DNA from: a virus
Taxonomy: Duplodnaviria; Caudoviricetes
DNA length: 30,294 nucleotides
Direction: 5' to 3' (one strand)
IMG/VR virus record: IMGVR_UViG_3300032290_000368
Location: 1-30,294 of that record
Part shown: positions 10,070 to 27,671 of the stretch, one piece after another
Layout: every line of letters starts with the position of its first letter
How positions within the stretch are numbered: position 1 is the stretch's first letter
The notes under the pieces: generated by a model
What the model was told of the DNA's origin: nothing
The model's input: only the letters and a program-made list of their open reading frames with translations
Databases searched by the model: none
Position numbers and translations under genes: made by a program

Positions 10070-12384
10070 CGCACTTTCCCATTCCAATTCCGTTTCGTGG
10101 ATTTACTGAGCAATCGCAGTTCTCTGCGATTCCAGAAGGCATGACGCCGTCATGCTTGAATGTAATGCCATCGGACATTTGGAATGGTCGAATGCGACTT
10201 AGCACTCGCGCTGGCACGCGCAAGTACAACAAAGATAACGCGGCAGCGATTAAGGGCGCGCAGTTTGTCGGTACATACCGCATATACGAAAGCAATGTCC
10301 TTGTAGAGCGAATCATCTTTGTCCGCGATGGAAAGGTGTATTACGCAGATCCGAATAGCACGACCATCCCTGCATCTGTCACTCTGTTCGGTGGACAAAG
10401 CACGGCACTGCTTAATACAAGCGGGTTGGTCGAGGGCGTTCAGTTTAACGAGCACTACTACTTCGTCGATGGAGATCACTATGTTCTGGTGCATCTCGCG
10501 ACGCCTGCGTCTGCTACTGCGGTAACTGTTTGGGGTAATGACTCTCCTAAACATGGCCCGTTTCATACGGATCCGGGAACCATCACGACTGGATGCAGGG
10601 CGACTCTGATCTGCCGATGGGGTGCGCGCCTCGTTCTGGCTGGATACAAGGACACTCCGAACATTTGGTACGCCTGCGCTCCTGACGATACATGGCCGAT
10701 TGCAGGAGGTTCAGGAGGTGGCCTGTCCGATGGATGGACTAGCGCGCATGTGATCGGAGCAATCACAGGAACGACCGCCAACGAGTACGGGACGCTCGGA
10801 GATCCGATCGTCGCCATCTTCCCGTTCGCGCAGAGTGGTCTGATGTTCGCGTGTTCAAACTCGTTCGGATTTTTGACGAGCGATCCAGACATGGATCCCA
10901 ACGCTGCGATCGTAAACCTGACGAAATCCATTGGCATTGCTGGTCGTCGCGCATGGTGCCAAGGTCAGGAAAAAGGCGCATACATTTTGGGTCGTGACGG
11001 CTTGTACTTTCTCAATGCCAACGATTTCAATTTCAACCGTGGGAACAGAATCAGTGCTGGCCGTCTTGATTCATTCTTCTTGAGACTGGACTTCGGTACG
11101 CCAGCCATTCAAGGATCTGGAACGCTTGCAGGCGGATCTCTACGGCTGTTAAACACAGAAACAGGATCAGCAACAGGCGCAACGGTCAAGACATTGACTG
11201 GCACTGGAACCATTACTGAAACCGCAACAGCAGAATCTGTATCTGTTCCAACAGATGTAGCGTCGTTTACAGGATCAAGTCTTGTCGATGGCGAGGTATT
11301 TCCTGTGTTGTGTTGGGATCCAGATCGCGAAGGCGTATGGATGTTCTTGACGGTAAATGGAATTGAGAGTTCCAGTATCCATCTGTTCTACGATGTCAAA
11401 ACAGAATCGTTCTGGCCTCAGCGGTTTTATGACCCTGACATGTACGGTCCAACATCGGCTGTGTATATCGGGTCATCAAGATCGAAAAATGGCCGCTTGA
11501 TTATGGCTAATTCTGATTCCATTGCGTTCATGGAAAAGTCATTCGCAATTGGAATGGACGGGTACTACAGCGCAATTGAAGACGAAGCAACAATCAGGAC
11601 GCAATCAATCAAAACAAGTCTGACATTTGGGCCGATTATTGCGCCTCTTCCGCAGCGGTTTCTTTTGAGCGAAGTCCGCGTTGATCTGTCAGAGGATGCT
11701 TACGAACTTCCCGCAGGATTTCCAGATGTAACGACGCCGCCGATCCTTTCTGTGTCAACGGGCGATACGGCTCAATTGGCTCTTGGACTTCAGAGCGATA
11801 CGCTGTTTGCAACCAACATCAATCCTCTTGTGATTGATTGCGGTAATGCTGCAACATCATCTCCGTCGCCAACATATGACGGTGGTACATCCGCCACACC
11901 AGCGCCGGATCGAATTGATGGGCGATTTGCGCTTCGTCCCTTTGGGACATACACGCAAAACGATTCATTTGCATCGATGATTGACCGCATTTACGACGGT
12001 CCCGGAAATTGGCAACTCAAATACTCCAGTGGGTATTGGAGGATTATTTATGCAGGCACCAATCTTGATGGTTTGTCAAACGAGTCTGAATACCAACAGA
12101 TCGTTCCTGACATTGGATCTCCTAACGGAATCATGGTGACCCAGCAACAGGATGTAATTTCTCCAGATGTTTTAGATAACGCCAATGTCACTGGGGCATC
12201 GTTTCCTGATGCAGAAGTGACTGAGATTGGCGAACTCAACGCTGGAAGAAACCAAGCAATTAAAACGCGCGTGCGATCAGAAGCGATGTATTTGACACTT
12301 GGCTCAAATGGTCGTCCGTGGAGTATTGAGCGAATGTCTGCTGTGCTTTCACAGGTTGGCTACAGCAGAGGAGGAACATCGTAA
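10066..12384 (+). CDS. Tail nozzle / tail tubular B / P22 gp10-like DNA stabilisation protein
   Basis: 772 aa, beta-propeller-like. Starts PF.G......IP.G..P.C.NV.P......R...R.G and contains WGARLVLAG. Precedes the ejection genes. Confidence 0.7.
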   Translation: MTHFPIPIPFRGFTEQSQFSAIPEGMTPSCLNVMPSDIWNGRMRLSTRAGTRKYNKDNAAAIKGAQFVGTYRIYESNVLVERIIFVRDGKVYYADPNSTTIPASVTLFGGQSTALLNTSGLVEGVQFNEHYYFVDGDHYVLVHLATPASATAVTVWGNDSPKHGPFHTDPGTITTGCRATLICRWGARLVLAGYKDTPNIWYACAPDDTWPIAGGSGGGLSDGWTSAHVIGAITGTTANEYGTLGDPIVAIFPFAQSGLMFACSNSFGFLTSDPDMDPNAAIVNLTKSIGIAGRRAWCQGQEKGAYILGRDGLYFLNANDFNFNRGNRISAGRLDSFFLRLDFGTPAIQGSGTLAGGSLRLLNTETGSATGATVKTLTGTGTITETATAESVSVPTDVASFTGSSLVDGEVFPVLCWDPDREGVWMFLTVNGIESSSIHLFYDVKTESFWPQRFYDPDMYGPTSAVYIGSSRSKNGRLIMANSDSIAFMEKSFAIGMDGYYSAIEDEATIRTQSIKTSLTFGPIIAPLPQRFLLSEVRVDLSEDAYELPAGFPDVTTPPILSVSTGDTAQLALGLQSDTLFATNINPLVIDCGNAATSSPSPTYDGGTSATPAPDRIDGRFALRPFGTYTQNDSFASMIDRIYDGPGNWQLKYSSGYWRIIYAGTNLDGLSNESEYQQIVPDIGSPNGIMVTQQQDVISPDVLDNANVTGASFPDAEVTEIGELNAGRNQAIKTRVRSEAMYLTLGSNGRPWSIERMSAVLSQVGYSRGGTS

Positions 12385-13361
12385 TGGCAGCACTAGCAAT
12401 CGGTATCGGCGCTGGCTTAATGGGCGCAGGCGGGATCATGGGCGGCCTATCTGGTCGCTCTAAAAAGAAAGCAATGCAGGCATTAGCCCGTGAAGCCTTG
12501 ACTCGTTACGGAGATTTGGCAAAGGATTACGGGTCTCAATTTCAAAGCGTCATCGACGATTTCTCTAAGGCTCAGGCTGCGAACATAGCGCAGTACAGGC
12601 AAGACTTTGAGAAGTCAGCCTCCACCTATGAGCAGTATTTCAAGCAGGCTCAACAGCAGTATGCAGAGGGATTCGATGCTGCTATTGGCGAATACCGAAC
12701 TGGTCGAGAAAACACTATTGCGCTGATGCGTCAACAAACAGAAGCGCAGCAACAATCAGCACGAGCGCGTAATGCGTTTACGGGTCTTGGACAAACATCA
12801 TTCGGTCAACAGCGCGTCGATGCTCTTGGTCAGCAAGGAATGATGCGTGAGGGTGCTGTCCGTGAAGAGTATTCGCGTGGGCTTTCAACAATGATGGCTC
12901 AACGCGCTGTTGGTGTGTCAGGAATGACGCAGCAACTTGGGACTGGTCTTGCTGCTATTCAGCAGCAGATGGGATCTGGAGTAAGCGCGCTGATGACGCA
13001 TTACGGAACGAATTTGGCCCAGATGGGTCAGGCCCGTGTTGGCGGAATTACAAACATTCAGCAGGCTGGTCTTGGGCAATACTTCGGAAGCCAAGGGCAA
13101 GCAGCACAAATGGCTGGCAGCATGATGGGCGCAATGGGCAACTTCCTTGGCTCTGCTGGTGGTGCGGTTATGGGTGCTGGCTTAAGTGGTGGTTTCTCAC
13201 CTGCTCAGGCTGGTGCTGGTGCTGGTTCTGGACCAGCGACAGGTTCAAGCCTTGGTTACACGGGACAAGGAAACATTGGTTCATCAACTGGAATGGGCAA
13301 TCCATTAACCGGAGGATGGCACCAAGGATTTAGTGGTATGCCAATTACATTCACGGGATAA
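12384..13361 (+). CDS. Ejection / DNA pilot protein
   Basis: SD GGAGG. Gly/Ala hydrophobic N-terminus (MAALAIGIGAGLMGAGGIMGGL), Q-rich coiled coil and Gly-rich C-terminus, resembling podovirus pilot proteins. Confidence 0.6.
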   Translation: MAALAIGIGAGLMGAGGIMGGLSGRSKKKAMQALAREALTRYGDLAKDYGSQFQSVIDDFSKAQAANIAQYRQDFEKSASTYEQYFKQAQQQYAEGFDAAIGEYRTGRENTIALMRQQTEAQQQSARARNAFTGLGQTSFGQQRVDALGQQGMMREGAVREEYSRGLSTMMAQRAVGVSGMTQQLGTGLAAIQQQMGSGVSALMTHYGTNLAQMGQARVGGITNIQQAGLGQYFGSQGQAAQMAGSMMGAMGNFLGSAGGAVMGAGLSGGFSPAQAGAGAGSGPATGSSLGYTGQGNIGSSTGMGNPLTGGWHQGFSGMPITFTG

Positions 13362-13364
13362 CGC

Positions 13365-13961
13365 ATGGCAAATAAGCAATCAACAACACCGCAGTTTCTC
13401 ACGCAAGAAAAACTACGCGCTATTGCTGCGGGTCTTGGTCGCGGCCTGATGGCGTATGACCCAAACAATCCATTTGCTGGTGCAGGCGCTGCGCTTGCAA
13501 CTGTTGCTGGTATTGAAGAGGAGCGCGCGCTTCGCAATCAAAACTTTGCGGAGCAACGCCAGACCTTGACACAACAGCAAGAGTTCAGTGCATCACAGCG
13601 CAAGCAGGCCATTGCAGATGCGCGTGCTGCTCGCGATGAAGAGCGCGCATATGATGAGAAGATGCGCCCAGAATTGCGCAAGGAACGACTTGAAGACATC
13701 AAAGAAAGTGAGCAACTAAAGTTTGATCTTGCGAAGAAGCAGCGAGAAGAGATTGCCTCCGGTTTAAAAAACCAAAAAGCATTTGCACTTGGGTTAAGTC
13801 AGTTTAAAAACCCATCATTCAACCAAGACTTTGCAAGTTCTATTCCTGAAGCACCGCGTGCTTCTGGAACTGCTCCAACTCAATATCTGGACAGCCTACT
13901 TGAGGATGGAGAACAATTCCGCACACAGATGCGCGCGCTTCGTGGGGAGTTTGGACGATGA
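13365..13961 (+). CDS. Putative internal virion (ejection) protein
   Basis: Amphipathic G/A segment followed by a charged coiled coil. Located in the ejection cluster with ATGA coupling to the next gene. Confidence 0.5.
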   Translation: MANKQSTTPQFLTQEKLRAIAAGLGRGLMAYDPNNPFAGAGAALATVAGIEEERALRNQNFAEQRQTLTQQQEFSASQRKQAIADARAARDEERAYDEKMRPELRKERLEDIKESEQLKFDLAKKQREEIASGLKNQKAFALGLSQFKNPSFNQDFASSIPEAPRASGTAPTQYLDSLLEDGEQFRTQMRALRGEFGR

Positions 13962-15328
13962 CTTCATTTCCGCAATCAATAAAGAATTCTGTGGCATCGA
14001 TGACATCTCCAAAGATGGGAACTGCTGCACAAAGCGGTGGGTCTTCATTGCCTGAGCAATCTGCTGATCCAAGTTCTGATTCATTCCAGTTGGATCTTAC
14101 GAGTCAATCAGAAGCGCCAACCTACGAGGGAATCCCTCAGCGTGACGCAACATCGACACTCAGCAAGATTGATGAGGCATATAGAAAAAGTCTCGCAGAG
14201 AATGTCAAGGGTCGTGCGTCCGAAGTCAATGACATTCAATTGACTATGCGGGGAATCGTTGATGGCGATCCTGTTGGCATGGAGACATTCGATCTTGGGT
14301 TTTACGAGGATGGCACTCCAGCGATCTTCATTAATGGCGCTCCTGTTCCGATTGAAAACAGCCAATGGATGGCTCTTTTGAATATGCGGAAGAATCAGCG
14401 CGACCAAATGCAAGCGATGATGGAGTTCCGAAAGGCTAGCGAAGACGCGCAAAGAACCGTATCTGCTGTTGTGTCATCAATGCCCAACATGCCAAAGGGG
14501 TTGGCTGAAGGACTGATGTATCTGGCAAGGAACAACCCAGATGTCGCTGGTCAGCAACTTGCTCGACTCGGAAATTCGTTTGCAACGGATGGTGGAAAGA
14601 CTCAGGCACTCGACATCAGCGTTGGGATCATGCAGTCTCAAGTTGAAAATAGAATGCGCACGCTGTACGAGCAAGGCCCAGAAGAGCCAATTACGGTAGA
14701 AGAAAAGGGCGTTGGCGGTGTTGTAATTGGTAGTAAGCAGATCATGCAACGCAGGCCATCTCGCGTAGACATGACTCAAGGAATGTTGCAACAGAAATTG
14801 CAAATGCAGGGCGCAAACCGCGAAGAGATCCAAGGGCAAATGGGATCTCTTCCATTGTTGCAAGGGTTGTTCCCAATCGCAGAGCGCAAGTACCTCAATG
14901 GCGGCGCATCAATGGGCGTGTTTGATTGGATTAGCAGCCCATATCAGGTTGGTGGAACTGGAAACAATGTCAATGCATATGGCGCGTGGGACACGCTTAA
15001 GCGCGTGGCAACTATTCCAGAGTTGTGGGACGGCCATGTTGTGCCACAGCCACAGCAACCATTGAATGTCAACGACCCAATGTCTGTAAATGCATGGATG
15101 CAGTATCTGACTAATCTTGATGAATGGGCAAGCATTCGTCTTGGATGGGATCGAAGTAGCCCACAGATGATCCAGCAGCACTTGCAGGCTCTTGCGGCAT
15201 CCGCATCTCAAAGTGCTGGAATGTCTATGGCATCTCCTGCACCTATCTCAGCACCACAACAACAAATGAGTCCAGTTGATCAGGCATTGAACAACGCTGG
15301 TCTTGGTGGATTTGAAATTCAGAAGTGA
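13958..15328 (+). CDS. Putative internal virion (ejection) protein
   Basis: 456 aa, Q/M/S-rich and helical, immediately before the giant gene. No catalytic motif recognised. Confidence 0.45.
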   Translation: MTSFPQSIKNSVASMTSPKMGTAAQSGGSSLPEQSADPSSDSFQLDLTSQSEAPTYEGIPQRDATSTLSKIDEAYRKSLAENVKGRASEVNDIQLTMRGIVDGDPVGMETFDLGFYEDGTPAIFINGAPVPIENSQWMALLNMRKNQRDQMQAMMEFRKASEDAQRTVSAVVSSMPNMPKGLAEGLMYLARNNPDVAGQQLARLGNSFATDGGKTQALDISVGIMQSQVENRMRTLYEQGPEEPITVEEKGVGGVVIGSKQIMQRRPSRVDMTQGMLQQKLQMQGANREEIQGQMGSLPLLQGLFPIAERKYLNGGASMGVFDWISSPYQVGGTGNNVNAYGAWDTLKRVATIPELWDGHVVPQPQQPLNVNDPMSVNAWMQYLTNLDEWASIRLGWDRSSPQMIQQHLQALAASASQSAGMSMASPAPISAPQQQMSPVDQALNNAGLGGFEIQK

Positions 15329-15335
15329 GACATCT

Positions 15336-18300
15336 ATGAACAACGATCTGACCTTCGCGCAGCAATGGCAAGCAATTCGCAACAAGATTGACGCCGACAT
15401 TCAAGCGGAAGGAATTACGGATCTTGGGCAAGTCGAAGCGCGCGTATCAAAGAACTACGACTCGTTTCGCGACTTCATTTCAAACCGCAAAAAGCAAGAG
15501 GCTCTCGCAACTGCTTACAAGGCTGGTCTCACGCCACAAGTAGTTGTTGAAGGCGAAGGTGGGGAAGCAAAGTTCGCGTCGTATGACGATAAGGTCAACG
15601 ATTGGGCAGAGTTGTACGCTAATCAATACATGGCTGGGAAAAAGCCAATCGATTGGAATACTTACAGCACGAATGACCGTAGTGCATTGATCGTTGGAAC
15701 AGAAGACGCTATCGGTCGATTCACTCACAGCACTGAGGGATTTCTCGGCGCGCTTGGCGGGTCGTTTGCTGCAATGCAGGCCGATCTCATGTCTCGCGGA
15801 GTTTTTTCTGCTCAAGGAATTCCCGCTCTTCCTCCAGAGTACGCAGAGGAAATTACCAATCGCGCATTTGAACAGGGAAAAGAGATCACGCAATCAGCGG
15901 CTGGCGAGTTCGCTAGAACCATGATTCCCGGCCTGTCTTCTGTTGCTGGAGAGGATCCAAATGCACCAGAATTAAAAAGTGAGCGCATCGGATCAGCAGG
16001 GAGTCCAACAGCATCAGCAATCGGACAAACGATTGGAGAGGCCGCTGGAGGGGCAGCGCAGTCAATTCCGCTGCTGATGATCAAAGACCCAATTCTTCGT
16101 GCTGGAGCAACGCTTCCGTACTTTGTCATGGGCAAGTACCAGCACCAAAATGAACTGTACAAAAATGAAATGACGGCGCGAGAAACTGCGCGTCGTCTTG
16201 GCATTCCATACGAACCTATTCCGTATTCTCAACGACAGTTGGCTGGTACTGTTCAAGGTTTAGCAGAATACGGATCAGAGTACATCGGTGACTCGTTGCA
16301 AATCGGCGTGCTGAAGTTTGACAAGTGGCTTCTTCGTGGCCTTGGAGCAAAGAAGTTCGGGCCATTGGCTAAAGAACTTGGGCAAAGCATGGACCGACAT
16401 CTTGGTCCTATGGGTCTTTTAAAGACTGCTGGAAAAATTGCATTTGCTGGCGCAACAGAAGCAGGTGAAGAAGCATTCTCTGAATCGGCAAAGGGCGTCA
16501 ACATTGCCACACCTGCGGGATTTGAATACGAATATCTCAGCGAGGATGTAGCAGACGCTGCACTTACAGGCGGCTTGTCTGGTGCATTTTTAGGCGCTGG
16601 CACTACTGGGTTGGGCGGGATCCAAAAGGCTTTCGATGACCGTGCTATTCGCAGGCAACTTGAAGAAGGCGGCGCTCAAGCAGACATGACACAGTCGCTT
16701 GTTGAGCGTGGTCAACAACAAGCAGTCGGCACCTTTGAAAAGCGACAAGTAATTTCTGGGTCAAAATCCCGGAATCAAGACCTCATCAACTTCAATCGAA
16801 ACATTCCCGTGGTTCGTGGTCAAACTATGGCCCGACACCAAATCGAAGAGTTGAGTGCTGGCAACAGGCTTGCCATGTTTGTTGACCCAGTTAATCAGAA
16901 AGAGACGATTACTCCGAAGTTGAAAAAGGAAATGGCAGATGCGGGAATCGTCAAAGTTGGAACGCATCAAGGTCGAGCCGTTTACGCTCATGCAGCCTTT
17001 GCTGCGGATGTCATGCAGGTTGTTGCGCAACGAAATAGCGCGGCAATCAATGGGTACAACGATTTGAACACAGACCAGATTATGGCTGGTGCTGTAGTTC
17101 TGCGAAACGATGCTGGTCACATCGTTCATGTATACCCATACTCAGATCCAGCAGAAATGTCGAAGCGGATTCCTTCGATTGTTGCCGACGCTGACGCGCG
17201 CGGATTGACGGTAGAAGATGTTGAGACCGGAAAGATTGGCACAATCACCGATCAGATTCAGCGCCAAGTCGATGCAGACGCTGCGTTGATGCGGATGCTG
17301 CCAGAAGAGCAGCGCCCATTGAGCACGCAAGATGTAACTAAAGGAATTTCAACACTGCGGACGGATATTGCAAAGTCCATCAAGGGCGGTATGGCAGATC
17401 CAAACGCGAAGTTCGTTTACGCCAAGACGAAGAAACCTGTGCGCAATGGATCTGTAAAGTTGCGTGGAATCACGCTTAGTCGAGTTGCAGATCAATCTTT
17501 GAGCGATGGTGAACGCAAGGTTCTTGAAACATCAACTGGCAGAGCAGTTGTGCTTGACGGAACTGCTGAATACGAGATTACAAACGACGATGGAACTGTA
17601 GAAGTTGTTCAAGGCGCGATCCCAATGGATGGTGCCTTTGTCAACCAATCGACTCCTGACGGCGTGTTTCTGGTCCGCGAAAATGGAAATGCACTGACTT
17701 CTCGCTCTGCGTTTGTTGTTGCGTGGCACGAGTTGCGTCACATGATTCACGCAAAGTCACGCGCTGGTGCCGCGCACATGGCGCGCCTGCTTTCGATCGA
17801 TCCAGTGTTTGCTGCTCGTGGCGGCGCTGAATACATGCGCAATAGGTATCAAGAACTCAATGGTTTGTCAGATTTGGAACTGATCAAAAAGTTGCAGGGT
17901 TTATCTAATGCAGCCAGAACAACCTTGAGTTCCCCAACCGCAACACAGCAACAGCGCGCGGAAGCAACACGCGATATTGCGCGATTCCGGCAATTTTCGG
18001 AGGAGTCAGTCACTACCACTGCCAACCAAGGCATGGGCATGATGACGGAACTTGCTGCGGAACATGAAGCCATCTATCAACTTCGTAGCGAACGGTCGAT
18101 GCGTGCATATTCCGCATGGCTGGCAAATACCCTCGTAAAGCGTGGATGGGCTGGACCACATGCCCGTCAGGCTTTGTATGAACTTGGGCAACGAGTTCGT
18201 GGGGTCCGTAGCGAAGAATTTGAACTGCATGAGAAATTTCGTGAGCAGACAGAACGCGCTGCTAAGGAGGCCATGCAACAAGGCGAAAGTCGCGCTGAAG

Positions 18301-21300
18301 CAGCAAAGGGAGCCGCATCAGCAGCACCAGCCATTGGCGCTGTAGGGGCGTCTGGAATTGGAAGTGGCATTGCAGAAGCCGCAGCATCTCTGGCCGGAGA
18401 AGATGACGAAGAACAACAAGCACAGCCGCCATCGGATTTGCAAACATCTGCATTGCAAACCATTACGGATCCTAGATTGGCGGCAATTGCTCAGATGATG
18501 ATGGCGCAGATTGCGCCTCCGTCTCGTGGCATAAGCGGTGGTCCGCGCGCGCAGCAGCGTGAGCGTCAACTTCGGCAGGCCGAACAGCAAGCGCCGGAAG
18601 TTGTGGCTGATGAACCGCCAAGCAAGATTGATCTTCCTCTGCTTGCATCAATCCCAAAGCCAACGCAGGTCGATTTGCGTCAACGAACACTGCGCAATGA
18701 GGCACAGGCTGCGCGTGTAATTGAAGGCATGGATTCAACTGAAGAGTTGGATATCGGTTCTATAAGTCGCGCGCAACGCGCACGACGATACGAATCTCCT
18801 TCTGAAGAATCGTTGTTTTCGGTGCGAGACCGTCCCGGAAGGCAACAGGCAAACCAAAGTGTTCGTGATCTTCGTAATCGCTACATGCAAGATCGCGGCA
18901 TCACGCCGGAAATCGATATCACCGACACATACGCTGAGGTAGACGAAAACTTTGCCAAGCGTGTTGCAGATTGGTATGACTCTGCTGAGGTTGATTACGC
19001 AGATCCAGAGATGCTGCGCGCATATGAAGCATTTGGGAAAGAAACGCTCGACCAGTACAAGTATCTGCGCGATGCTGGAGTGCAGATGATTCCTTGGGCT
19101 GGGACAGAAAGCGTTCAGCCATATGCGAACAGTGCGCAAATGACGCGAGATTTGCGAGAGAACAATCGACTGTTCTACTTCAAAACAGTTAACCCAGAAG
19201 AGGCCGCGTCATTTGGTAGCAATCCTGAGAAGTTTGCAGAGCAATTGGCGCGCAATCCATTGCTTGCTGACTCTGGAATCACCGTTCTCGACAGCGAAGG
19301 CCAGCCGTACCGACAAACTTACAACGATCTATTCCGCGCTGTGCATGATGTGTTTGGACACGCAGCGGAAGGATTCCAGTTTGGACCTCGTGGAGAAGAG
19401 AACGCTTACCGAAGCCACGCAGTGATGTTCTCGCCATTGGCTCGTGGAGCAATGGCAACTGAAACGCGAAGCCAAAATTCTTGGGTTAACTTTGGGCCAA
19501 ACCGTCGCAACCCTGATGGCACGGTGTGGGGTGAAGAGGATCCAAGGTTCCAGCCGTGGAAAGAGGCGTTGAATCGCGGCGAAGGCTACGCCGATCAGAA
19601 GCCCGTCCTCACGCCGCCGGAGTTCCTCGGCCTGTACGAAGCGCCGCAGCAGGCGCGCGCATCGCTCCGTCCGATCACTCGTGAGGAAATGACTCCTGCG
19701 ATGCGGGTGTGGAGCGATGGGTCGAAGATCGTGGACAAGAACGGCGCTTTGATCCCGGTGTACCACGGGACATCGAAGGACACGGACTTCAAGAAGTTCC
19801 GAATCGGAAAGCGCGGTGCTTGGTTCACAACCAATCCGCAGGAGGCATCGCAATATGCGATGGCGAACGACAGCATGGGTTGGAAGTCCGATCCTACGGA
19901 AACGGATCCGTGGGCATCAAGACAAACCAACACCGCATCACGAGTCATTCCCGCAGTACTGAACCTGAAGAACCCGGCAAACTACTACAGGAATGTCTCT
20001 ACGGAAGACAAAAAAGCGCTTGAGACATCGGAGAACTATGGCCGTGAGCAAGGCCGCGTATTCGATAAGTTGCGTCGTCAGGGATTCGATGGTGTTGACA
20101 TGGGCAACGGCGTGTATGTCGCCTTTGAACCAAATCAGATCAAGGGCTACTACAACGCTAACCCGACCGCCGACGAGCGCATCATGTACTCAGTTCGCGA
20201 TCAAAAGCCTGTCGTAACACCCGTTGAACTTCAATCGCTGTATTCAATGCGAGAGGGCTATCCATTCCGTGGAAAGAGACTTGCGCGTGGCAATCAAGCG
20301 ATGATCAATCGTTTGAACCAACAGGTATCTCGCGGAAAGATGAGCCAAGAAGATGCCTCATTCGGCATCGAACTCATTCAGCGTGTAAATCAGAATGTTC
20401 CTTTGGTGCTGCAACTTTTTGGACCAGCAGAAATGCGTCGAGAAGGTAGGCCCAAGGAAGTTGGTGCAATGTTCGACGCCGTAAACGAACGAATCATTGT
20501 TGGCACAAAGGCAATCAAAGACGGAGACTTTCAAGAGGCATTCACGCACGAGTTGTGGCATTCTCTGTCTAGGTTCTTGCCGCAAAGCCTTTTGAAGCCA
20601 ATCGCTCGTGACTACAAAAAGGCGTATCTTGCATTCCGCAAAGAGTACAACCTTGACCCGCATGATTTCAACAATGTCCGCATTGCTGATCGACAAACTG
20701 GAAAGACATATCGCGATATTTTTCTTGAGGAAACTGAGAAAAGGAATATCAGCGACCTTCTCTGGTATCGCTTAATTGACATTGATGAATGGCTTGTGGT
20801 CAATGCGGCAGAGGCAACACAGGACAGAATGTCTAGGGAAAAGGAAGCGCGGGATAAATCTGGACCTGCGCGTGTGTATGCGGCTGTTGCGTTGTTGATT
20901 CGCGACATGCTTAACTCTGTCAAGAGTGTCTTTGGTTATGGCGTGTACGAGAATCTTGCCAAGAACTTCCTTCGCGGCACAACGCTTGGCATGGCATCTG
21001 AACCCGATAAGGAATGGGATTCCGTCTCTGGGCAGTTGTACGACTTGTTGGCATCAGAAGAGGATGCGCAAGCAATTCGCAATGAACAACGAATCGCACA
21101 ACAACAAGAGATGGCGCAAGAGCCAGCGTTGTCGTCTAGGTATGAAAGTCTCTTTGACATTCGGAAGACGAAAGAAACGCAATCCGACAAAGCGCGCGCG
21201 AAGGTTCGCAAGACAAAGCAAAAACAACCAGAACTGACACCTGTTCAGCGTGTCGTTTCTAACGAAACTGCGATTGGATTTGCGCCATCAACGAGTATTG

Positions 21301-24300
21301 CGCTTGGTATCAGGTCTGATCGATCTGGCCGCCAGATTTCTCCTGAGTATGCGCAGCGACGAATCATTGACATCTTCACATCACCGAATGTGCAAAAGAA
21401 AATTTCTACATCTCTCCAATCACTTGGAGTTGGTGGTATCGAATCGATCGAAATTGCCAATGGCATTTGGCAAGGGACGCCAGAAATTTCTGCGCGCATC
21501 AAACTGCAAACGAAATCGTTTGATACCCAGCATCGTGTTGCAAACATTCTTGCAGCAGCAATGATGCAAGACGCTGTATTGTCTATCGGACTTCCAGACG
21601 AATCGAACAAGGCATTCCACAAGGCTGTTCTTGTCTTTAACTTGGCAGAAAAATCCAGTCAAGAGATTGCAGACTTCACCAAGGTATTGAACAATGGGTT
21701 CAAGGTTGGTACGGTGGTAAGCCGAACTAAAGTCGCGTATGTCGCTCGTCCAGACGGCATGAGCGAAGAAGACTTTTCTAAAATCGGTTCAAAGATCGCT
21801 AGCGAAAATTCTGTTGCAGTAGATATCTCTAACGCAGCAGTGCAATTTGGAGATACGGGAGTTTCCGATGAATCAAGACCAAAGGTCAGAAGCACAGCGA
21901 GTAGCAGATCTCATGGGTTTACCATTGCGGGGCAACGACTTTCTGATCAAGAGCGGAATTCTTGGCTCGACATTGCTAGCACATTCGCGCACGCCGCAGA
22001 AGTCGAAGGATATGAAATCGACTACAACAAGTGGCTCAGTGCCTTCGTCGCAGACCCAGATGAGCGAAGCGCCCTCCAGACAGAACTTGTCGAGCGAATC
22101 GTCGCCATCGATGGAGCCGCCGGAAACTACGGGTTAAGCAGTTGGTACCTGACGAAGTTCAAGGGTGATGTGAAGGGCTTGATTGTTGGCCCGAAAGCCT
22201 TGGTTGGACAAGACACCAAAGACAAGGCTGATGAGTTTGCAGTCATCGATAAGTTGATTGCAAAGCACCCTGATGCGTTCAAAACGCTTGACGGATACCA
22301 AAGATTCATGGTTGAGATGTTGCAATCTCGCACCATCCCGATCGCTCCAGAATCGCACTTCAAGCGTATTGCAGACAACCACGCTGGGGATAAACAGCGA
22401 TTCCGTTTGATCTCGCCAAGCGATAGGAGTGCTGGTCAATCTGGAATCACGCGGGGGCAACTCGACGATGCTATTCACGGCATGGAAAATGCCGAAGCAT
22501 TGCGCAAACTGTATTCGCAGGGAGTGATGAAGCCAAAGCACACGGTGCTGTTGTATCTGTGGGGCTTCCTGTCTCGTGGCGTATCACCGAATGTGCAAGA
22601 GAGTCTGCTTCTCGACATGGTGAATTTCAAGTACGAAGCGCCATCGATTGATGTCTATAAATACGATGTCGTCACCACAGAGAAAAAAGATGGTAAGGAA
22701 ACAAAGCGAGAGGAAAAGACAGAACTTAGGTTCAAGAAACCACAGACGCCTCTTGGTGCAATTAGGTTCAAGCGTTCAAAGAACCAAACCGTAAGTAAGA
22801 AATTGCAAACCACGGTGCAGACCATTGCGCTGTCGAAACCTCTGTCCTTAGATTTCTTCATCGACGCTGCTATTGAAGGGAAATGGTCTGACGAAACAGA
22901 CACGCTATGGAGCGCGTTTGTATCTCTGATGATGGATAAAAATGCATTCCCTGCATATGACATTGATGGTGAGCCGATTGTCGAGTTTGGCGAACCAACA
23001 CAGATCAATGGGTCATTCGGCGCAGGTGCCGTCCACAACGCGAATGCATTTGGAGACAACTTCCTTCGCAACATTGCCACCATCGAAACAATCAATGGTC
23101 AAACGAAGAGCGGACTTGCTCACATCCACGATGAGATGAGCAAGGACACCGCAACGGGCGATTCGCTTCGCCGCGTGTTCGCACAGATCCCGTCTGCTCT
23201 TGGCATCGACAACAAGGTTGTGTCGTTCAACGGCCTTGTGTCTGGGTTGTTTGGCATCGTTGCAGATCGCGTATTCATGCGTTTGGCCTACAACGCGAAC
23301 AACGAACTGCGCGGAAATATCTACGACGGCTTTACGCTGGGATGGAATGTTTTCATTAACGGAAAACTTTCTGAGTTCCGTTTCAACCCAGAATTGCCTC
23401 AAGACACTCCACCTGATTCGCAAGTAGCGCCATTCGATTCTCTTGATGAGATCGTAAAGGTCTTGGATGTTGCGCTCGGAACTAAACCTGCGCGAAATTT
23501 CAACGACACGACTTGGGATCGGAAATCCACAGTCGAATCTCTTTTGAAAGAGGCCGCAAAGAAAAAGATAACTGTTCCTAGTGTTCAGTTTGAAGCGGTC
23601 ACACATAAGGGGATCGGTAAATTGTGGGATGGCACGCGAGGCATTGCGATCTACAAGGCATTTGAGGAATCGATTGATCTGCAAGAAGCGTTCTCTGAAC
23701 TGATCAAACAAGAACCCAAGTTTGCTCCACATGCTCACATGGGCATGTATCACTGGCTCGGATGGGTCGAAGACAGCGGTCAAGAGGCCAGTCACCAAAC
23801 AGTCGAAGCCATCATGCGTATGGCTACCACTGGTAATGATCGAATCGATTCCGTGTATGCCAAGGCAGGCAAGTACAACTCATTCCAATATGGGTTTGAG
23901 TACGGGTATGAGGTTGTTGGAACATCAAAATCTGGAGAACAGATTCTTGAGCCGCGCTACAAGATCACACTGCCTGATGGCAAGACGCGGCAATTCTCTA
24001 CGAAGGATTTCAAGGCATTCCAACTTGCATTGAAAAAACCCGCGAATGGAGTTGTTCCGAAGAACTTTATGATCAGTGAACAGAAGGGGCCGTGGTTCAA
24101 CTCTCCGCAATTGTCGGAAACGAATAAAGCGAACCTCTATCGTCTAGCAGACGAGATGCAAACCCAATTCAGTGTTCGTGCGGGTTGGGATCAACGCCAG
24201 AGTCTGATGCGGAATATGCGGATCACCTCTGTTGATCCAGAACGCATGTCCCGCGTTGCGATGGAATTGCCGTTTGAAACAATTGGCGTTCCCTCTGAAC

Positions 24301-27300
24301 GACTTCCTGCATCGTTGGAGAAAATCAAACAGGCATTTGTTGATCGACCAGTACCTACTCCGGTGAGTCCAGAGTTCATCGAATGGAATCGCGGAAACAA
24401 GTTGGTTGGCATGGTGCCTAACAACATTTTCTGGCATGGGACTGGCGCTCAATTCAGCCGATATGACGAACGGCCCTACGAACTTGGGTGGCATGTTGGT
24501 TCGATCCAACAAATCACACCGTTCGTGTTACAGAATTGGGCAAACAAAAAATCTGCGTATGCCATGCCGCTGTATGTGACCGCGAAGAACCCATTACGGT
24601 TGCCTGACCGTGGTTCTTGGGACATGCGAACGATTGTTTCCAGCATGGTGAAAGAGGAAATACTCACGCAAGAAGACGCTGTGCAATTGATGCAACGAAT
24701 GACGAGAGATGTTGGAGGAGAACTTCAAGGCAGCACGCCTTTGAAATCGTTCTCAGGCCGTAGCGTCAGTCAGGTCTCAGCACTGCAACGCCAGTTCACT
24801 ACGGAATGGCTGAACAGCCTTGGGTATGACGCAATCGTCTACGACAATAAGTTTGAGGGTGCTGGACCAGATGGCACGAATGATTCCGTAGTCATCTGGA
24901 ATTACGGTCAGGTCAAGAGCCTGAGTGCAAAGCAATTCGATCCGACAGTCCCAGACGCATTGTTCTCCATGCGTACTGAGCGCGGGTCTATGTTCCATGA
25001 TGCGAATCCCTACGCGGTCGATGCTCAGTTCTCTATGCGCAGAGGATCGCTTGGCGCGAAAGACGAGTTCGTGCAACAGATTGTTGATCAGTACGACGAG
25101 GTGCTTCGTCTGCAACGCACGATTGAAACGAGAACAGGAACCGCGTTGCCAGATGCATCAAATCCATATCTAGGTATGCGAGTGCTGTCTGGTCGTCTTG
25201 GATCAATGCAGCAGGTGGCAGAACGCAGGTACGCCACAATCCTGCATGACATGGCGAGACACCGAATTACGCTCGACATGATGGACGATTTCTTGACGGC
25301 ACAACATGCCTTGAATGGCGGCAATCAATACATCGAAAACTTGACGGCTGGCCGCGTTCTTGATGGAACAGGCATGAGCAATAGTGATGCGAACGATGTC
25401 ATTCTTCGCGCACAAGCATCCGGCAGATACGCGCAGATGAATCGCATTGCAGAGGATTGGCGTGAAATGCTGCGAGATGCGTTGCGGCAGCGCCGCGACA
25501 GTGGGTTGATTACGCCACAACTGTACAACACACTCACCACGCGATACACGCACTATGTTCCGTTGCAGGGCATTGCTAATCGTCCCGAAGACGAGGTCTT
25601 TGAGCAGTTTGACGAGGCAATGCGTGGAACTGGGCAAGGCCAATCGACCACGGGCCGTGGCATTCGACGACGACTTGGCCGCCGCAGCCGTGCTATGGGC
25701 GTGACCTCTCAGGTGGGGTTCATGCACGAGGAGACATTCCGTCGTGTAGCACGCAACGACATCGGGAATCGCTTTGCGCGCTTCGTGACGGCTCTGAATG
25801 ATCCGAATGATGCGGAGATCGTTCGTCCGACAGCGCGGTATGTCGCTGCTGATGGGTCGTACCAGTATCGTCCTGATCCTAGTTGGATGCAGGATCCGCG
25901 CATGTTCGGTCTGTATGTCGATCGCAGAATGACGGTTGGGGGACACACATACCAGCAGGGAGATTTGATGGTCATCCGCCTGACCAATCCGCGCTTGGCT
26001 ACGGCTATGAAACAGCCGAAGACGGACATTGGGTTGGTTGGGCGGGGTCTTCGCCACCTCAATGATGCGTTCCGATTCTTCACGACTGGCATGGGTAATC
26101 CGCAATTCGCTCCAGTGAATGCCGGAAGAGACATTCTGACCTCATCCCTGATGAATTACACAAATCGTGGGGCAATTGACACCGTGCAAATGCTCGCAAG
26201 GTATCCATTCGCATTTGCGCGTGTATTCAAGGACTCGTGGAGGGGACGGCCAACGGGTACCTATGCAGCAATGCAACAGGCTGGTGGCGACATGATGGCG
26301 TGGCGTCCAAACGATTTGGAACTGAAGCGAATTGACTTTGATCGTTTGGCGGCAGACGCGCAGCGAAGAGATCCTAATTCAACGAGTGTCGCTCGTCGTC
26401 TGCTTGGGTGGTATCCCGCGTTCTTTTCCGCCGCTGAAACTGCGAGTCGTCTTGCGCAGTTTGAGCAGCGTGTTGCGACTGGATCCACGAAAGAGCAAGC
26501 AGCACTCGCTGCGCGAGAAATCACAGTCGATTTCGCGAAGGGCGGCGTGCAGAAGACACTGCTCAATACGCTCTACATGTTCTTGAACGCAGGCATTCAA
26601 GGCAATGCAAACATCATCAATTCCATGCGCCGCAATCCTCGACGGGGTGCCGTTGTTGCGTCAAGTCTCGTAGGCATCGGTGTGATCAACGCAGTGATGG
26701 CACGAATGATGGCGGGAGATGACGAGGAGTCTGGACTCAATCGTTGGGATATGATCCGCAACCACGAGAAGGCCAGCAATCTGTTCTTCTTCGATCCGCG
26801 AGGAACGGGGAAGCACATCAAGATTCCTCTGCCCTATGGCTTTAACGCGATGGTGACAACAGGGACGCGCATTGCAGATTCAGTGTTTGGACCAAAGACC
26901 GGATCTGAGGCCGCAGTAGATATCTTCACCGATTTCCTCAATGCCTTTAATCCAGTTGGTGGATCAGGAATTACATCGGGATCCGCCACGGCGTTCAATG
27001 CGTTCGTTCCAACGGCATTTCGGCCATTCGCGGAAATCGCAACGAACACTACATTCAGTGGCGCGCCTGTGTACCGTGACTCATTCGGTAAGGATGTCGT
27101 CGATTCGGCAACCTATTTCGATGGGACGCCGCAAGCGTATATTGCGTTGGCTGAAGGGTTGAACCAGTTCACTGGTGGTGATCAGTATGAATCTGGATCT
27201 GTGCTTGGATTCGATACAGACCTTAGTCCGAATGTCCTGCAATACCTTGTCGGCTACTACTTCAGCGGCACGGGTCGCCTCGTCAACCAGACGCTGAAAG

Positions 27301-27671
27301 TTGCGAGTGGAGATTACAGCGTCTCAGATGTGCCTTTGGCGCGCAGTTTCGTGGGACAGGCGGGAACAGACAACGCCGCAATCAACGAACTGTACTACGA
27401 AGAGGAGGCGAAGTCGTTGCCTACGATGCGCCGCGCGAAGGCCGCTGCCGACAAGTCTTTGAGTTTGGAGCAACGCACTGAAGCAGCGGCTGGCATTGAT
27501 CCAACGGAACTGCGTGTTGGTATCTCACTGAAAGAGACTGAGAAAGCGTTAAAAAAACTGCGAGAGCAGATGAAGGGTGCCACGCCAGAACAGCGCGCTG
27601 CGATTATGAAGGTGCGTCAATCCGTAATGAAGGGCGCATTGCGCACAAGAGGGTTGACCCCCAATCAATAG
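15336..27671 (+). CDS. Giant (~4111 aa) polyvalent internal virion protein with HExxH peptidases, two ART-PolyVal-like domains and C-terminal LPD38
   Basis: Uninterrupted 12.3-kb ORF; ATG 15336 avoids overlap with the upstream gene. Motifs: HELRH (17727), HDVFGH (19344), YHGT (19761), HELWH (20547), WHGT (24432). LPD38-like IKIPLPYGF...P..EI.TN..F.G.PV lies at ~26800-27070. Confidence 0.85.
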   Translation: MNNDLTFAQQWQAIRNKIDADIQAEGITDLGQVEARVSKNYDSFRDFISNRKKQEALATAYKAGLTPQVVVEGEGGEAKFASYDDKVNDWAELYANQYMAGKKPIDWNTYSTNDRSALIVGTEDAIGRFTHSTEGFLGALGGSFAAMQADLMSRGVFSAQGIPALPPEYAEEITNRAFEQGKEITQSAAGEFARTMIPGLSSVAGEDPNAPELKSERIGSAGSPTASAIGQTIGEAAGGAAQSIPLLMIKDPILRAGATLPYFVMGKYQHQNELYKNEMTARETARRLGIPYEPIPYSQRQLAGTVQGLAEYGSEYIGDSLQIGVLKFDKWLLRGLGAKKFGPLAKELGQSMDRHLGPMGLLKTAGKIAFAGATEAGEEAFSESAKGVNIATPAGFEYEYLSEDVADAALTGGLSGAFLGAGTTGLGGIQKAFDDRAIRRQLEEGGAQADMTQSLVERGQQQAVGTFEKRQVISGSKSRNQDLINFNRNIPVVRGQTMARHQIEELSAGNRLAMFVDPVNQKETITPKLKKEMADAGIVKVGTHQGRAVYAHAAFAADVMQVVAQRNSAAINGYNDLNTDQIMAGAVVLRNDAGHIVHVYPYSDPAEMSKRIPSIVADADARGLTVEDVETGKIGTITDQIQRQVDADAALMRMLPEEQRPLSTQDVTKGISTLRTDIAKSIKGGMADPNAKFVYAKTKKPVRNGSVKLRGITLSRVADQSLSDGERKVLETSTGRAVVLDGTAEYEITNDDGTVEVVQGAIPMDGAFVNQSTPDGVFLVRENGNALTSRSAFVVAWHELRHMIHAKSRAGAAHMARLLSIDPVFAARGGAEYMRNRYQELNGLSDLELIKKLQGLSNAARTTLSSPTATQQQRAEATRDIARFRQFSEESVTTTANQGMGMMTELAAEHEAIYQLRSERSMRAYSAWLANTLVKRGWAGPHARQALYELGQRVRGVRSEEFELHEKFREQTERAAKEAMQQGESRAEAAKGAASAAPAIGAVGASGIGSGIAEAAASLAGEDDEEQQAQPPSDLQTSALQTITDPRLAAIAQMMMAQIAPPSRGISGGPRAQQRERQLRQAEQQAPEVVADEPPSKIDLPLLASIPKPTQVDLRQRTLRNEAQAARVIEGMDSTEELDIGSISRAQRARRYESPSEESLFSVRDRPGRQQANQSVRDLRNRYMQDRGITPEIDITDTYAEVDENFAKRVADWYDSAEVDYADPEMLRAYEAFGKETLDQYKYLRDAGVQMIPWAGTESVQPYANSAQMTRDLRENNRLFYFKTVNPEEAASFGSNPEKFAEQLARNPLLADSGITVLDSEGQPYRQTYNDLFRAVHDVFGHAAEGFQFGPRGEENAYRSHAVMFSPLARGAMATETRSQNSWVNFGPNRRNPDGTVWGEEDPRFQPWKEALNRGEGYADQKPVLTPPEFLGLYEAPQQARASLRPITREEMTPAMRVWSDGSKIVDKNGALIPVYHGTSKDTDFKKFRIGKRGAWFTTNPQEASQYAMANDSMGWKSDPTETDPWASRQTNTASRVIPAVLNLKNPANYYRNVSTEDKKALETSENYGREQGRVFDKLRRQGFDGVDMGNGVYVAFEPNQIKGYYNANPTADERIMYSVRDQKPVVTPVELQSLYSMREGYPFRGKRLARGNQAMINRLNQQVSRGKMSQEDASFGIELIQRVNQNVPLVLQLFGPAEMRREGRPKEVGAMFDAVNERIIVGTKAIKDGDFQEAFTHELWHSLSRFLPQSLLKPIARDYKKAYLAFRKEYNLDPHDFNNVRIADRQTGKTYRDIFLEETEKRNISDLLWYRLIDIDEWLVVNAAEATQDRMSREKEARDKSGPARVYAAVALLIRDMLNSVKSVFGYGVYENLAKNFLRGTTLGMASEPDKEWDSVSGQLYDLLASEEDAQAIRNEQRIAQQQEMAQEPALSSRYESLFDIRKTKETQSDKARAKVRKTKQKQPELTPVQRVVSNETAIGFAPSTSIALGIRSDRSGRQISPEYAQRRIIDIFTSPNVQKKISTSLQSLGVGGIESIEIANGIWQGTPEISARIKLQTKSFDTQHRVANILAAAMMQDAVLSIGLPDESNKAFHKAVLVFNLAEKSSQEIADFTKVLNNGFKVGTVVSRTKVAYVARPDGMSEEDFSKIGSKIASENSVAVDISNAAVQFGDTGVSDESRPKVRSTASSRSHGFTIAGQRLSDQERNSWLDIASTFAHAAEVEGYEIDYNKWLSAFVADPDERSALQTELVERIVAIDGAAGNYGLSSWYLTKFKGDVKGLIVGPKALVGQDTKDKADEFAVIDKLIAKHPDAFKTLDGYQRFMVEMLQSRTIPIAPESHFKRIADNHAGDKQRFRLISPSDRSAGQSGITRGQLDDAIHGMENAEALRKLYSQGVMKPKHTVLLYLWGFLSRGVSPNVQESLLLDMVNFKYEAPSIDVYKYDVVTTEKKDGKETKREEKTELRFKKPQTPLGAIRFKRSKNQTVSKKLQTTVQTIALSKPLSLDFFIDAAIEGKWSDETDTLWSAFVSLMMDKNAFPAYDIDGEPIVEFGEPTQINGSFGAGAVHNANAFGDNFLRNIATIETINGQTKSGLAHIHDEMSKDTATGDSLRRVFAQIPSALGIDNKVVSFNGLVSGLFGIVADRVFMRLAYNANNELRGNIYDGFTLGWNVFINGKLSEFRFNPELPQDTPPDSQVAPFDSLDEIVKVLDVALGTKPARNFNDTTWDRKSTVESLLKEAAKKKITVPSVQFEAVTHKGIGKLWDGTRGIAIYKAFEESIDLQEAFSELIKQEPKFAPHAHMGMYHWLGWVEDSGQEASHQTVEAIMRMATTGNDRIDSVYAKAGKYNSFQYGFEYGYEVVGTSKSGEQILEPRYKITLPDGKTRQFSTKDFKAFQLALKKPANGVVPKNFMISEQKGPWFNSPQLSETNKANLYRLADEMQTQFSVRAGWDQRQSLMRNMRITSVDPERMSRVAMELPFETIGVPSERLPASLEKIKQAFVDRPVPTPVSPEFIEWNRGNKLVGMVPNNIFWHGTGAQFSRYDERPYELGWHVGSIQQITPFVLQNWANKKSAYAMPLYVTAKNPLRLPDRGSWDMRTIVSSMVKEEILTQEDAVQLMQRMTRDVGGELQGSTPLKSFSGRSVSQVSALQRQFTTEWLNSLGYDAIVYDNKFEGAGPDGTNDSVVIWNYGQVKSLSAKQFDPTVPDALFSMRTERGSMFHDANPYAVDAQFSMRRGSLGAKDEFVQQIVDQYDEVLRLQRTIETRTGTALPDASNPYLGMRVLSGRLGSMQQVAERRYATILHDMARHRITLDMMDDFLTAQHALNGGNQYIENLTAGRVLDGTGMSNSDANDVILRAQASGRYAQMNRIAEDWREMLRDALRQRRDSGLITPQLYNTLTTRYTHYVPLQGIANRPEDEVFEQFDEAMRGTGQGQSTTGRGIRRRLGRRSRAMGVTSQVGFMHEETFRRVARNDIGNRFARFVTALNDPNDAEIVRPTARYVAADGSYQYRPDPSWMQDPRMFGLYVDRRMTVGGHTYQQGDLMVIRLTNPRLATAMKQPKTDIGLVGRGLRHLNDAFRFFTTGMGNPQFAPVNAGRDILTSSLMNYTNRGAIDTVQMLARYPFAFARVFKDSWRGRPTGTYAAMQQAGGDMMAWRPNDLELKRIDFDRLAADAQRRDPNSTSVARRLLGWYPAFFSAAETASRLAQFEQRVATGSTKEQAALAAREITVDFAKGGVQKTLLNTLYMFLNAGIQGNANIINSMRRNPRRGAVVASSLVGIGVINAVMARMMAGDDEESGLNRWDMIRNHEKASNLFFFDPRGTGKHIKIPLPYGFNAMVTTGTRIADSVFGPKTGSEAAVDIFTDFLNAFNPVGGSGITSGSATAFNAFVPTAFRPFAEIATNTTFSGAPVYRDSFGKDVVDSATYFDGTPQAYIALAEGLNQFTGGDQYESGSVLGFDTDLSPNVLQYLVGYYFSGTGRLVNQTLKVASGDYSVSDVPLARSFVGQAGTDNAAINELYYEEEAKSLPTMRRAKAAADKSLSLEQRTEAAAGIDPTELRVGISLKETEKALKKLREQMKGATPEQRAAIMKVRQSVMKGALRTRGLTPNQ

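Follow-up and report, generated by a model that had tools for sequence, protein, structure and literature searches.

What marks the joints in a phage protein that carries several unrelated activities in one chain, and what might read those marks? The question is raised by virus record IMGVR_UViG_3300032290_000368, a linear sequence of 30,294 bases and about 73% complete, which was analysed as a whole and is called the window below. On its + strand, a giant open reading frame (ORF; 15303-27671) lies downstream of genes for the portal, major head, cement, SU10-type adaptor and fibre proteins, and its 4122 amino acids join two ART-PolyVal domains, an LPD38 domain, phrog_3170 and two HExxH regions. 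This multi-domain protein, encoded beside virion genes, belongs to the class that Iyer et al. (2017) called phage-type polyvalent proteins. Pfam places LPD38 at residues 3813-4000 and ART-PolyVal at residues 1478-1622, with a second ART copy below the cut-off; residues are counted throughout from the TTG at 15303 and not from the probable ATG at 15336, and the database copy (P0002) has 4111 residues. A preliminary description of this DNA held that a recurring [FY]S[VM]R peptide marks every cargo boundary of the protein and may be a cleavage site for its self-processing. We find that the junction code is real and well supported, and that cleavage at the motif is likely, judging from sequence; the more specific reading, that the motif copies are recognition sites for self-processing by a zincin-like domain in the N-terminal part of the protein, has in our estimate a probability of about 55%.

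A peptide at the joints of the giant protein

All eight peptides that had been reported translate exactly in the ORF (Table 1), and all fall within residues 1170-3246. Six of them match [FY]S[VM]R strictly, where 0.12 matches would be expected, and none of 2000 shuffled sequences reaches six; the pattern was picked after the sequence had been seen, and the tests on homologs therefore carry the weight. The copies lie between predicted domains, as proposed: both Pfam ART-PolyVal domains are flanked by them, the first falling between Ser1454 and Ser1630 and the second (E-value 4.8e-6, 27.8 bits against a cut-off of 31.2) between Ser2957 and Ser3222. Spacing is irregular, from 18 to more than 1000 residues, and tracks domain ends, not length. 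Two variants had been counted with the strict copies. RASLR is a true member, its site having Ser in 28/28 mapped homolog rows; LFDIR stands at a real junction, where homologs have AMFSQR, AQFSLR or PMFSRR, but is itself a degenerate copy. The claim that every boundary bears the motif holds for nearly all of them, but not for the block at residues 1955-2953, which has no copy inside it and probably comprises two domains or more, because the initial ~300 residues are found on their own in a different protein, P0132. The first of two low-confidence AlphaFold2 models did not tell the motif region apart from linker.

A search with the C-terminal body of the protein gave 80 sequences: besides the giant protein, these were 49 close relatives, at 41-53% identity, and 30 distant ones. 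A second search found 8093 representatives and listed 150 of them, and DNA was fetched for sixteen loci of relatives. Within the close set about 1000 N-terminal and about 880 C-terminal residues are common, and the middle is a mosaic in which the order of blocks changes. At four non-homologous classes of junction the central Ser is present in 70/74, 27/27, 28/28 and 30/32 mapped rows, and the four classes yield one consensus, [AIPV]-[MRQL]-[FMYA]-S-[MLVIQ]-R, with Ser and Arg near-invariant. When relatives were scanned with a position-specific scoring matrix (PSSM), a first pass that included training sites and near-duplicate rows gave 323 matches in the middle region and 13 and 7 in the ends. 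A held-out scan of 51 database proteins, with 108 training sites dropped, found 146 matches in the middles against 21 in shuffled middles; the conserved N- and C-terminal bodies had 9 and 5 matches, with no excess. By these scans and the block-end test given below, the motif is enriched at junctions in homologs, and only in the variable middle. The strict [FY]S[VM]R form is one lineage's version of it, and many relatives carry others (R-M-S-x-R, F-A-M-R, M-G-S-R-R).

Versions of the motif also occur further afield. In distant LPD38 proteins a domain is flanked on either side by the protein's own form (YSR, FSR, LDSR, ESAR), for example LDSR in P0102 and ASR in P0136, and sites of the type [KR]FSL[KR] occur 10-11 times in P0076-78. 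In 144 distant proteins, plain [FY]S dipeptides upstream of the C-terminal body number 78 against 37 expected. Peptides resembling D-I-R-[YF]-S and A-x-F-S-R flank the ART-PolyVal domains of distant relatives, and across 31 proteins the N-flank of the ART domain compared with its own C-flank motif scores 0.574, against 0.405 ± 0.029 for the motifs of others (0/20000 permutations), in a set that is uncorrected for shared ancestry, from which 5 candidate pairs without an anchor and one sister sequence had been removed and in which several proteins show no match between flanks. In Planktothrix phage Pag-Yong1, ESAR occurs four times, at joints; FSR flanks the ART domain of Pseudomonas phage F116 gp60 on both sides, at 521 and 683, and in POCJ13 gp71 three copies of YSR stand at domain joints, where they enclose the HExxH domain and MuF_C. 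The giant protein of F116 (L021:839-12200) is annotated as two adjacent coding sequences, gp59 and gp60, and the end of gp59 has an apparent out-of-frame tail after the start of a methyltransferase.

Exchange of cassettes and constraint on the peptide

Shuffling of the middle region takes place at the motif. Breakpoints were defined as the ends of high-identity blocks beyond which sequences are unrelated, and were gathered without use of the motif. Within 6 residues of a motif Ser lie 251 of 358 collapsed block ends (random, 7.1%), and within 10 residues 265 (random, 11.6%), the underlying pairs not being independent; an earlier, cruder test, which this filtered one replaced, had shown a weaker signal, with 163 of 859 ends no more than 10 residues away (7.4% for comparison). 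When 65 proteins are cut at the motif they yield 229 segments of at least 70 residues, which form 37 families whose members align along most of the segment, although some families overlap through a missed site or a chance match that splits a domain; the cassettes of these proteins stand in 37 different orders. The ART1 cassette has 81-84% DNA identity to its counterpart in phages that are otherwise distant, and one such block stops exactly at Ser1630.

The constraint is on the peptide and not on the DNA, because Ser codons of both the TCN and AGY types are used. The motif serines of the window protein have the codons TCG, TCG, TCA, TCA, AGT, TCC and TCT, differing as had been noted, and among 55 motif Ser codons from the window and 11 loci all six codons are present (47 TCN, 8 AGY), with five kinds of Arg codon. 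Pairs of junctions within a gene share a codon modestly more often than expected (Ser, 42/133 against 30; Arg, 42/128 against 32), which may leave room for some conversion between junctions. This codon use rules out a DNA repeat as the explanation of the motif. A DNA cassette system of the integron or shufflon kind is rejected as well, since it would have a conserved DNA site at cassette ends and the motif shows synonymous TCN/AGY variation there.

Stand-alone genes give a further view of where cassettes end. For the cassette with the HDxxGH motif there are 305 short homologs; among the 120 listed, 54 start with Met and are no longer than 300 residues, and these have roughly the span of the cassette. 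A PSSM match occurs in 2/54 of them, internal in both cases, and none at the ends, in a set that may include some fragments and with a matrix that is clade-specific; the last 40 residues of these genes hold 12 [FY]S dipeptides, several as PEEFS at the domain's own end. On this cassette, then, the motif lies outside the folded domain. The consensus, the held-out matches, the breakpoints, the cassette orders, the stand-alone genes and the codons all strongly support the description of the peptide as a marker of module junctions.

The candidate peptidase and what may read the motif

Directly ahead of the cassette array lies the HELRH domain (residues 715-975), in which H809, E810, H813 and E901 are invariant in 53/53 rows covering the region. 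The suggestion that the protein's own HExxH peptidase might do the cutting thus finds its candidate here: this is the invariant HExxH, whereas the second (HELWH, residue 1749) belongs to an optional cargo cassette. Most relatives are without that second site, which rules it out as a general processing enzyme. In the low-confidence model of the HELRH domain the HExxH and the downstream Glu are both on predicted helices, the Glu on the later one, and the order of strands and helices fits a zincin, at a predicted local distance difference test score (pLDDT) of 58.6. Fold searches with this model gave helical-hairpin matches only (best Z 6.0, root-mean-square deviation 2.1, 54 residues aligned); no zincin was among the matches of four fold searches and the PDB sequence searches, a result that does not exclude a zincin fold, and an ESM Atlas search gave unnamed clusters only. 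A predicted complex of the peptidase domain, Zn and a 32-residue motif peptide scored 0.02, a 'no answer' that was not used either way. In a quick tree of the domain (53 rows), a branch of 21 rows (Shimodaira-Hasegawa-like approximate likelihood ratio support 99) has a uniformly non-aromatic type of motif at several junctions, and its neighbours have the aromatic type; this shift of motif flavour at several junctions together is a single event, and so no more than suggestive.

Fixed N- and C-terminal bodies enclose a row of exchangeable cassettes, almost all of them joined by the motif; we hypothesize that the predicted zinc peptidase (HELRH plus E901), just upstream of the cassettes, recognises it. 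The chain would be packaged whole and ejected, and its HExxH domain would then divide it in the host into separate enzymes, either in cis or between copies of the protein. Packaging and ejection are likely from the gene context and by analogy with a relative detected in virions, phi24B gp47; the peptidase activity of the HELRH domain, the cleavage and its timing are inferred. Cutting would come after packaging, most likely once the ejected protein refolds, since any fragment made earlier would have to bring a packaging signal of its own. The bond before the Ser (X-Ser) would be somewhat favoured over the one after it (Ser-X), because lineages agree on Ser or Ala at this position and vary in the preceding one (F/Y, M, A, D, E). 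A new cassette would be useful only when it brought a site on each side, and surviving recombinants would therefore break at the motif. Cutting at all eight sites would give products of about 125, 32, 20, 2, 35, 111, 30, 2.5 and 97 kDa.

In MARTX toxins and RNA-virus polyproteins, one chain contains an internal protease and its domains are freed at short recurring inter-domain sites; those proteases are cysteine or serine enzymes, and their cuts have been mapped. Here, unlike there, the enzyme would be a metallopeptidase and the target a bacterium, and we claim no sequence relationship. The phage-type polyvalent proteins of Iyer et al. (2017; PMC5512222) are likewise giant virion-module proteins with LPD38, ART-PolyVal and HExxH, and zincin-like metallopeptidases were proposed there to process them into functional units. 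The present account differs from theirs, as far as its accessible text goes, in that the joints are located and found to be shuffling points: that text has no recognition motif or linker code, the word 'linker' being absent and 'cleavage site' occurring only within a reference, and the supplements could show a motif. The Sepvirinae LPD38 ejection-protein candidates phi24B gp47 and POCJ13 gp71 share the C-terminal body (29% identity) but differ in their cargo (LPD5, LPD1, MuF_C) and in that the HExxH domain itself is bracketed by the motif; gp47 was found in virions and proposed as an ejection protein in a preprint (10.64898/2026.04.10.717836) whose accessible text does not state whether it runs full length. 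The virion RNA polymerase (vRNAP) of phage N4, gp50, and the virion RNA polymerase polyproteins of crAss-like phages are also giant proteins with an HExxH or zincin domain and are ejected, and cleavage of the fused crAss polyprotein has been proposed (10.1101/2020.03.07.982082, accessible text). Unlike these, the window protein has no RNA polymerase and instead a variable array of cassettes, and recombinant N4 gp50 is intact. In the literature covered (PMC9503650 in its accessible text among it, subscription journals mostly outside the search) no paper describing such a junction motif was found; the accessible texts on P1 and JC1 (PMC9024508, PMC9144972) hold no information on internal cuts, and a search by name for cultured relatives found no usable proteomics.

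The motif might also be bound and never cut. As a tag that docks modules on a shared partner during packaging, unfolding or tail threading, whether the HExxH domain, the LPD38 body, the portal or a chaperone, it would leave the domains as beads on a string and would explain peptide conservation, junction position and lineage-specific versions equally well. The Asp variant tolerated in the window protein is in keeping with such a tag, as are the reports that N4 vRNAP stays whole (PMC13434306, accessible text) and that the packaged N4 vRNAP and the transferred ArdC and TraC1 all go unprocessed (accessible text of Iyer et al., 2017, PMC5512222). We nevertheless consider a tag unlikely, in view of the irregular spacing (18 to more than 1000 residues), which follows domain ends rather than length, the bracketing of the HExxH domain itself in POCJ13, the invariance of the candidate catalytic Glu, and the coincidence of cassette ends with the ends of stand-alone proteins.

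Prohead proteases such as T4 gp21 and phiKZ gp175 cut many internal proteins at short motifs, cleaving repeatedly at one such motif in proteins destined for ejection, and the motif of the window protein might similarly be cut by another phage protease of this kind or by a host protease, with the HExxH domain attacking a host target such as the cell envelope. All the junction evidence fits this, a protease gene could be missing from a genome about 73% complete, and the accessible text of the phi24B preprint (10.64898/2026.04.10.717836) assigns the metallopeptidase to peptidoglycan. Against it, no prohead-protease family was found among the structural ORFs scanned, and PF04586, the sole family searched in six frames, is absent from the record. 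In prohead processing, moreover, a separate protease also cuts scaffold and capsid, whereas the putative scaffold and capsid ORFs of the window have no motif match at 7 bits or more; the motif is below threshold in 15 other + strand ORFs (best 7.7 bits). Motif versions that differ by lineage fit a phage-encoded reader better than a host enzyme, and we rank cutting by another protease somewhat behind even the binding tag. Improbable, in our judgement, is a peptide without a role, a by-product of cassette swaps through short end homology that spread or homogenised the junction sequence. The breakpoints do map to the motif, a duplicated stretch at residues 1633-1647 looks like an insertion scar, and the modest excess of same-codon pairs (Ser, 42/133; Arg, 42/128) points the same way; yet all six Ser and five Arg codons occur, TCN and AGY among them, the shared DNA amounts to only about 12-18 degenerate bases, and 39/39 proteins keep Ser3244 and Arg3246 at the last junction, where the columns upstream vary freely.

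Several observations weigh against self-processing by the HELRH domain. One site in the window protein has Asp in place of Ser, and one probable domain boundary, inside residues 1955-2953, is without the motif. More than 10 residues from any motif lie 93/358 block ends, the 45 of these examined being mostly variable inserts within a cassette or sub-threshold variants. Only 67/144 distant relatives have [FY]S in the 66 residues ahead of the C-terminal body, and 24/144 are without HExxH or HExxxH upstream, including one with matching ART flanks (P0176); many of these 24 are possibly fragments. The peptidase assignment rests on motif pattern, Pfam having no peptidase match for the HELRH domain; both AlphaFold2 models are poor (pLDDT 56.5 and 58.6), and profile-profile matches to other polyvalent-protein HExxH domains are weak (best probability 15%, E 0.0017). 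Neither the ART-flank comparison nor the tree shift of the 21-row branch is corrected for shared ancestry. From the literature, purified full-length N4 vRNAP, HExxH domain included, showed no degradation (PMC13434306, accessible text), peptidoglycan is the substrate that the phi24B preprint proposes, and no cleavage product of such proteins was found in a search with subscription journals mostly outside it.

Self-processing of phage polyvalent proteins has been proposed since 2017, without sites in the accessible text, and the motif now supplies exact candidate bonds, a candidate enzyme and cultured test phages (F116 gp60, Vibrio 1.205.O gp20, Pag-Yong1). Whatever reads it, giant proteins are already split by it into natural modules, with more than 30 cassette families, most of them without a Pfam name, that are candidate early anti-host or anti-defence effectors. 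If the cutting is real, it would explain the delivery and release of several enzymes by a short-tailed phage as infection begins. A broader and more tentative idea, to which we would give somewhat less than even odds, is that LPD38-type ejection proteins are plug-and-play effector delivery devices: an unvarying chassis, equipped with a metallopeptidase, would bear cassettes picked up by recombination, and excised inside the host, at a peptide code particular to each lineage, code and peptidase co-evolving. These proteins would then parallel MARTX toxins and viral polyproteins on the phage side, and their rules would make domain boundaries and cut sites readable in the sequences of thousands of giant proteins that lack annotation, the C-terminal body being common to 8093 representatives.

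Cassettes, spacers and neighbouring genes

Table 1. Parts of the giant gene, with positions in the window
Feature	Position	Strand	Remarks
Giant polyvalent (LPD38-type) protein	15336..27671	+	4111 residues from probable ATG; last gene of virion module
Conserved N-terminal body	15336..17444	+	no known family; no motif excess
Core zincin-like peptidase candidate	17445..18227	+	HELRH (H809, E810, H813; 17727-17741) + E901 (18003-18005)
Junction motif 1, SLFSVR	18810..18827	+	Ser1173
Cassette with HDVFGH motif (phrog_3170)	18828..19652	+	also as stand-alone genes of about 215-300 residues
Junction motif 2, ARASLR	19653..19670	+	Ser1454
Cassette ART1 (PF18760)	19671..20180	+	
Junction motif 3, IMYSVR	20181..20198	+	Ser1630
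Spacer repeating end of HD cassette (DQKPV.TP.E...LY)	20199..20234	+	33/66 nucleotides identical
Junction motif 4, SLYSMR	20235..20252	+	Ser1648
Optional cassette with second HExxH (HELWH, 20547; residue 1749)	20253..21146	+	in a minority of relatives
Junction motif 5, degenerate, SLFDIR	21147..21164	+	Asp1952 replaces Ser
1000-residue cassette (residues 1955-2953)	21165..24161	+	no internal motif
Junction motif 6, TQFSVR	24162..24179	+	Ser2957
Cassette ART2 (PF18760)	24180..24956	+	below curated cut-off
Junction motif 7, ALFSMR	24957..24974	+	Ser3222
16-residue spacer between motifs 7 and 8	24975..25022	+	
Junction motif 8, AQFSMR	25023..25040	+	Ser3244; Ser and Arg invariant in 39/39 aligned proteins
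Conserved C-terminal body	25041..27671	+	LPD38 (PF18857) 26739-27302; hydrophobic segment, residues 3781-3799

Two short spacers stand out among the parts of the array. The one between motifs 3 and 4, the repeat noted above, is probably the scar of a cassette insertion, that of ART1, to judge from its sequence. The spacer between motifs 7 and 8 could be a released micro-peptide or a scar; these two motifs stand 22 residues apart just upstream of the LPD38 body, and a spacer of 16-29 residues occurs at the same place in most relatives with the same neighbouring cassettes. In many relatives a short helical cassette (90-160 residues; families M11, M13, M23 and M36), bounded there by the motif, follows the peptidase; in the window its place is at about 18380-18810, where by eye the upstream site looks degenerate (AAASLA, about residue 1030).

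For residues 1955-2953, the label of an S-adenosylmethionine-lyase/helix-hairpin-helix region given in the preliminary description is tentative and without profile support: the resemblance is one of motifs, and shallow profiles (5-7 sequences) found no match in Pfam, PHROGs or the PDB. The HDxxGH...EENA domain, widespread as a stand-alone gene, is without a Pfam family and by eye resembles an HExxxH zincin with Asp replacing Glu. P0220, a protein of 4583 residues, has about ten ART-PolyVal-like repeats (YHGT x10, QIKS x9).

Upstream of the giant ORF are three genes (12384-15328; 325, 198 and 456 residues) that match no family convincingly; the first is rich in Gly, Ala and Gln, and the trio sits at the usual place of small ejection proteins. 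Near-identical strains of the window phage are present in other metagenomes (L046 and L047, 99.8% and 96.8% DNA identity).

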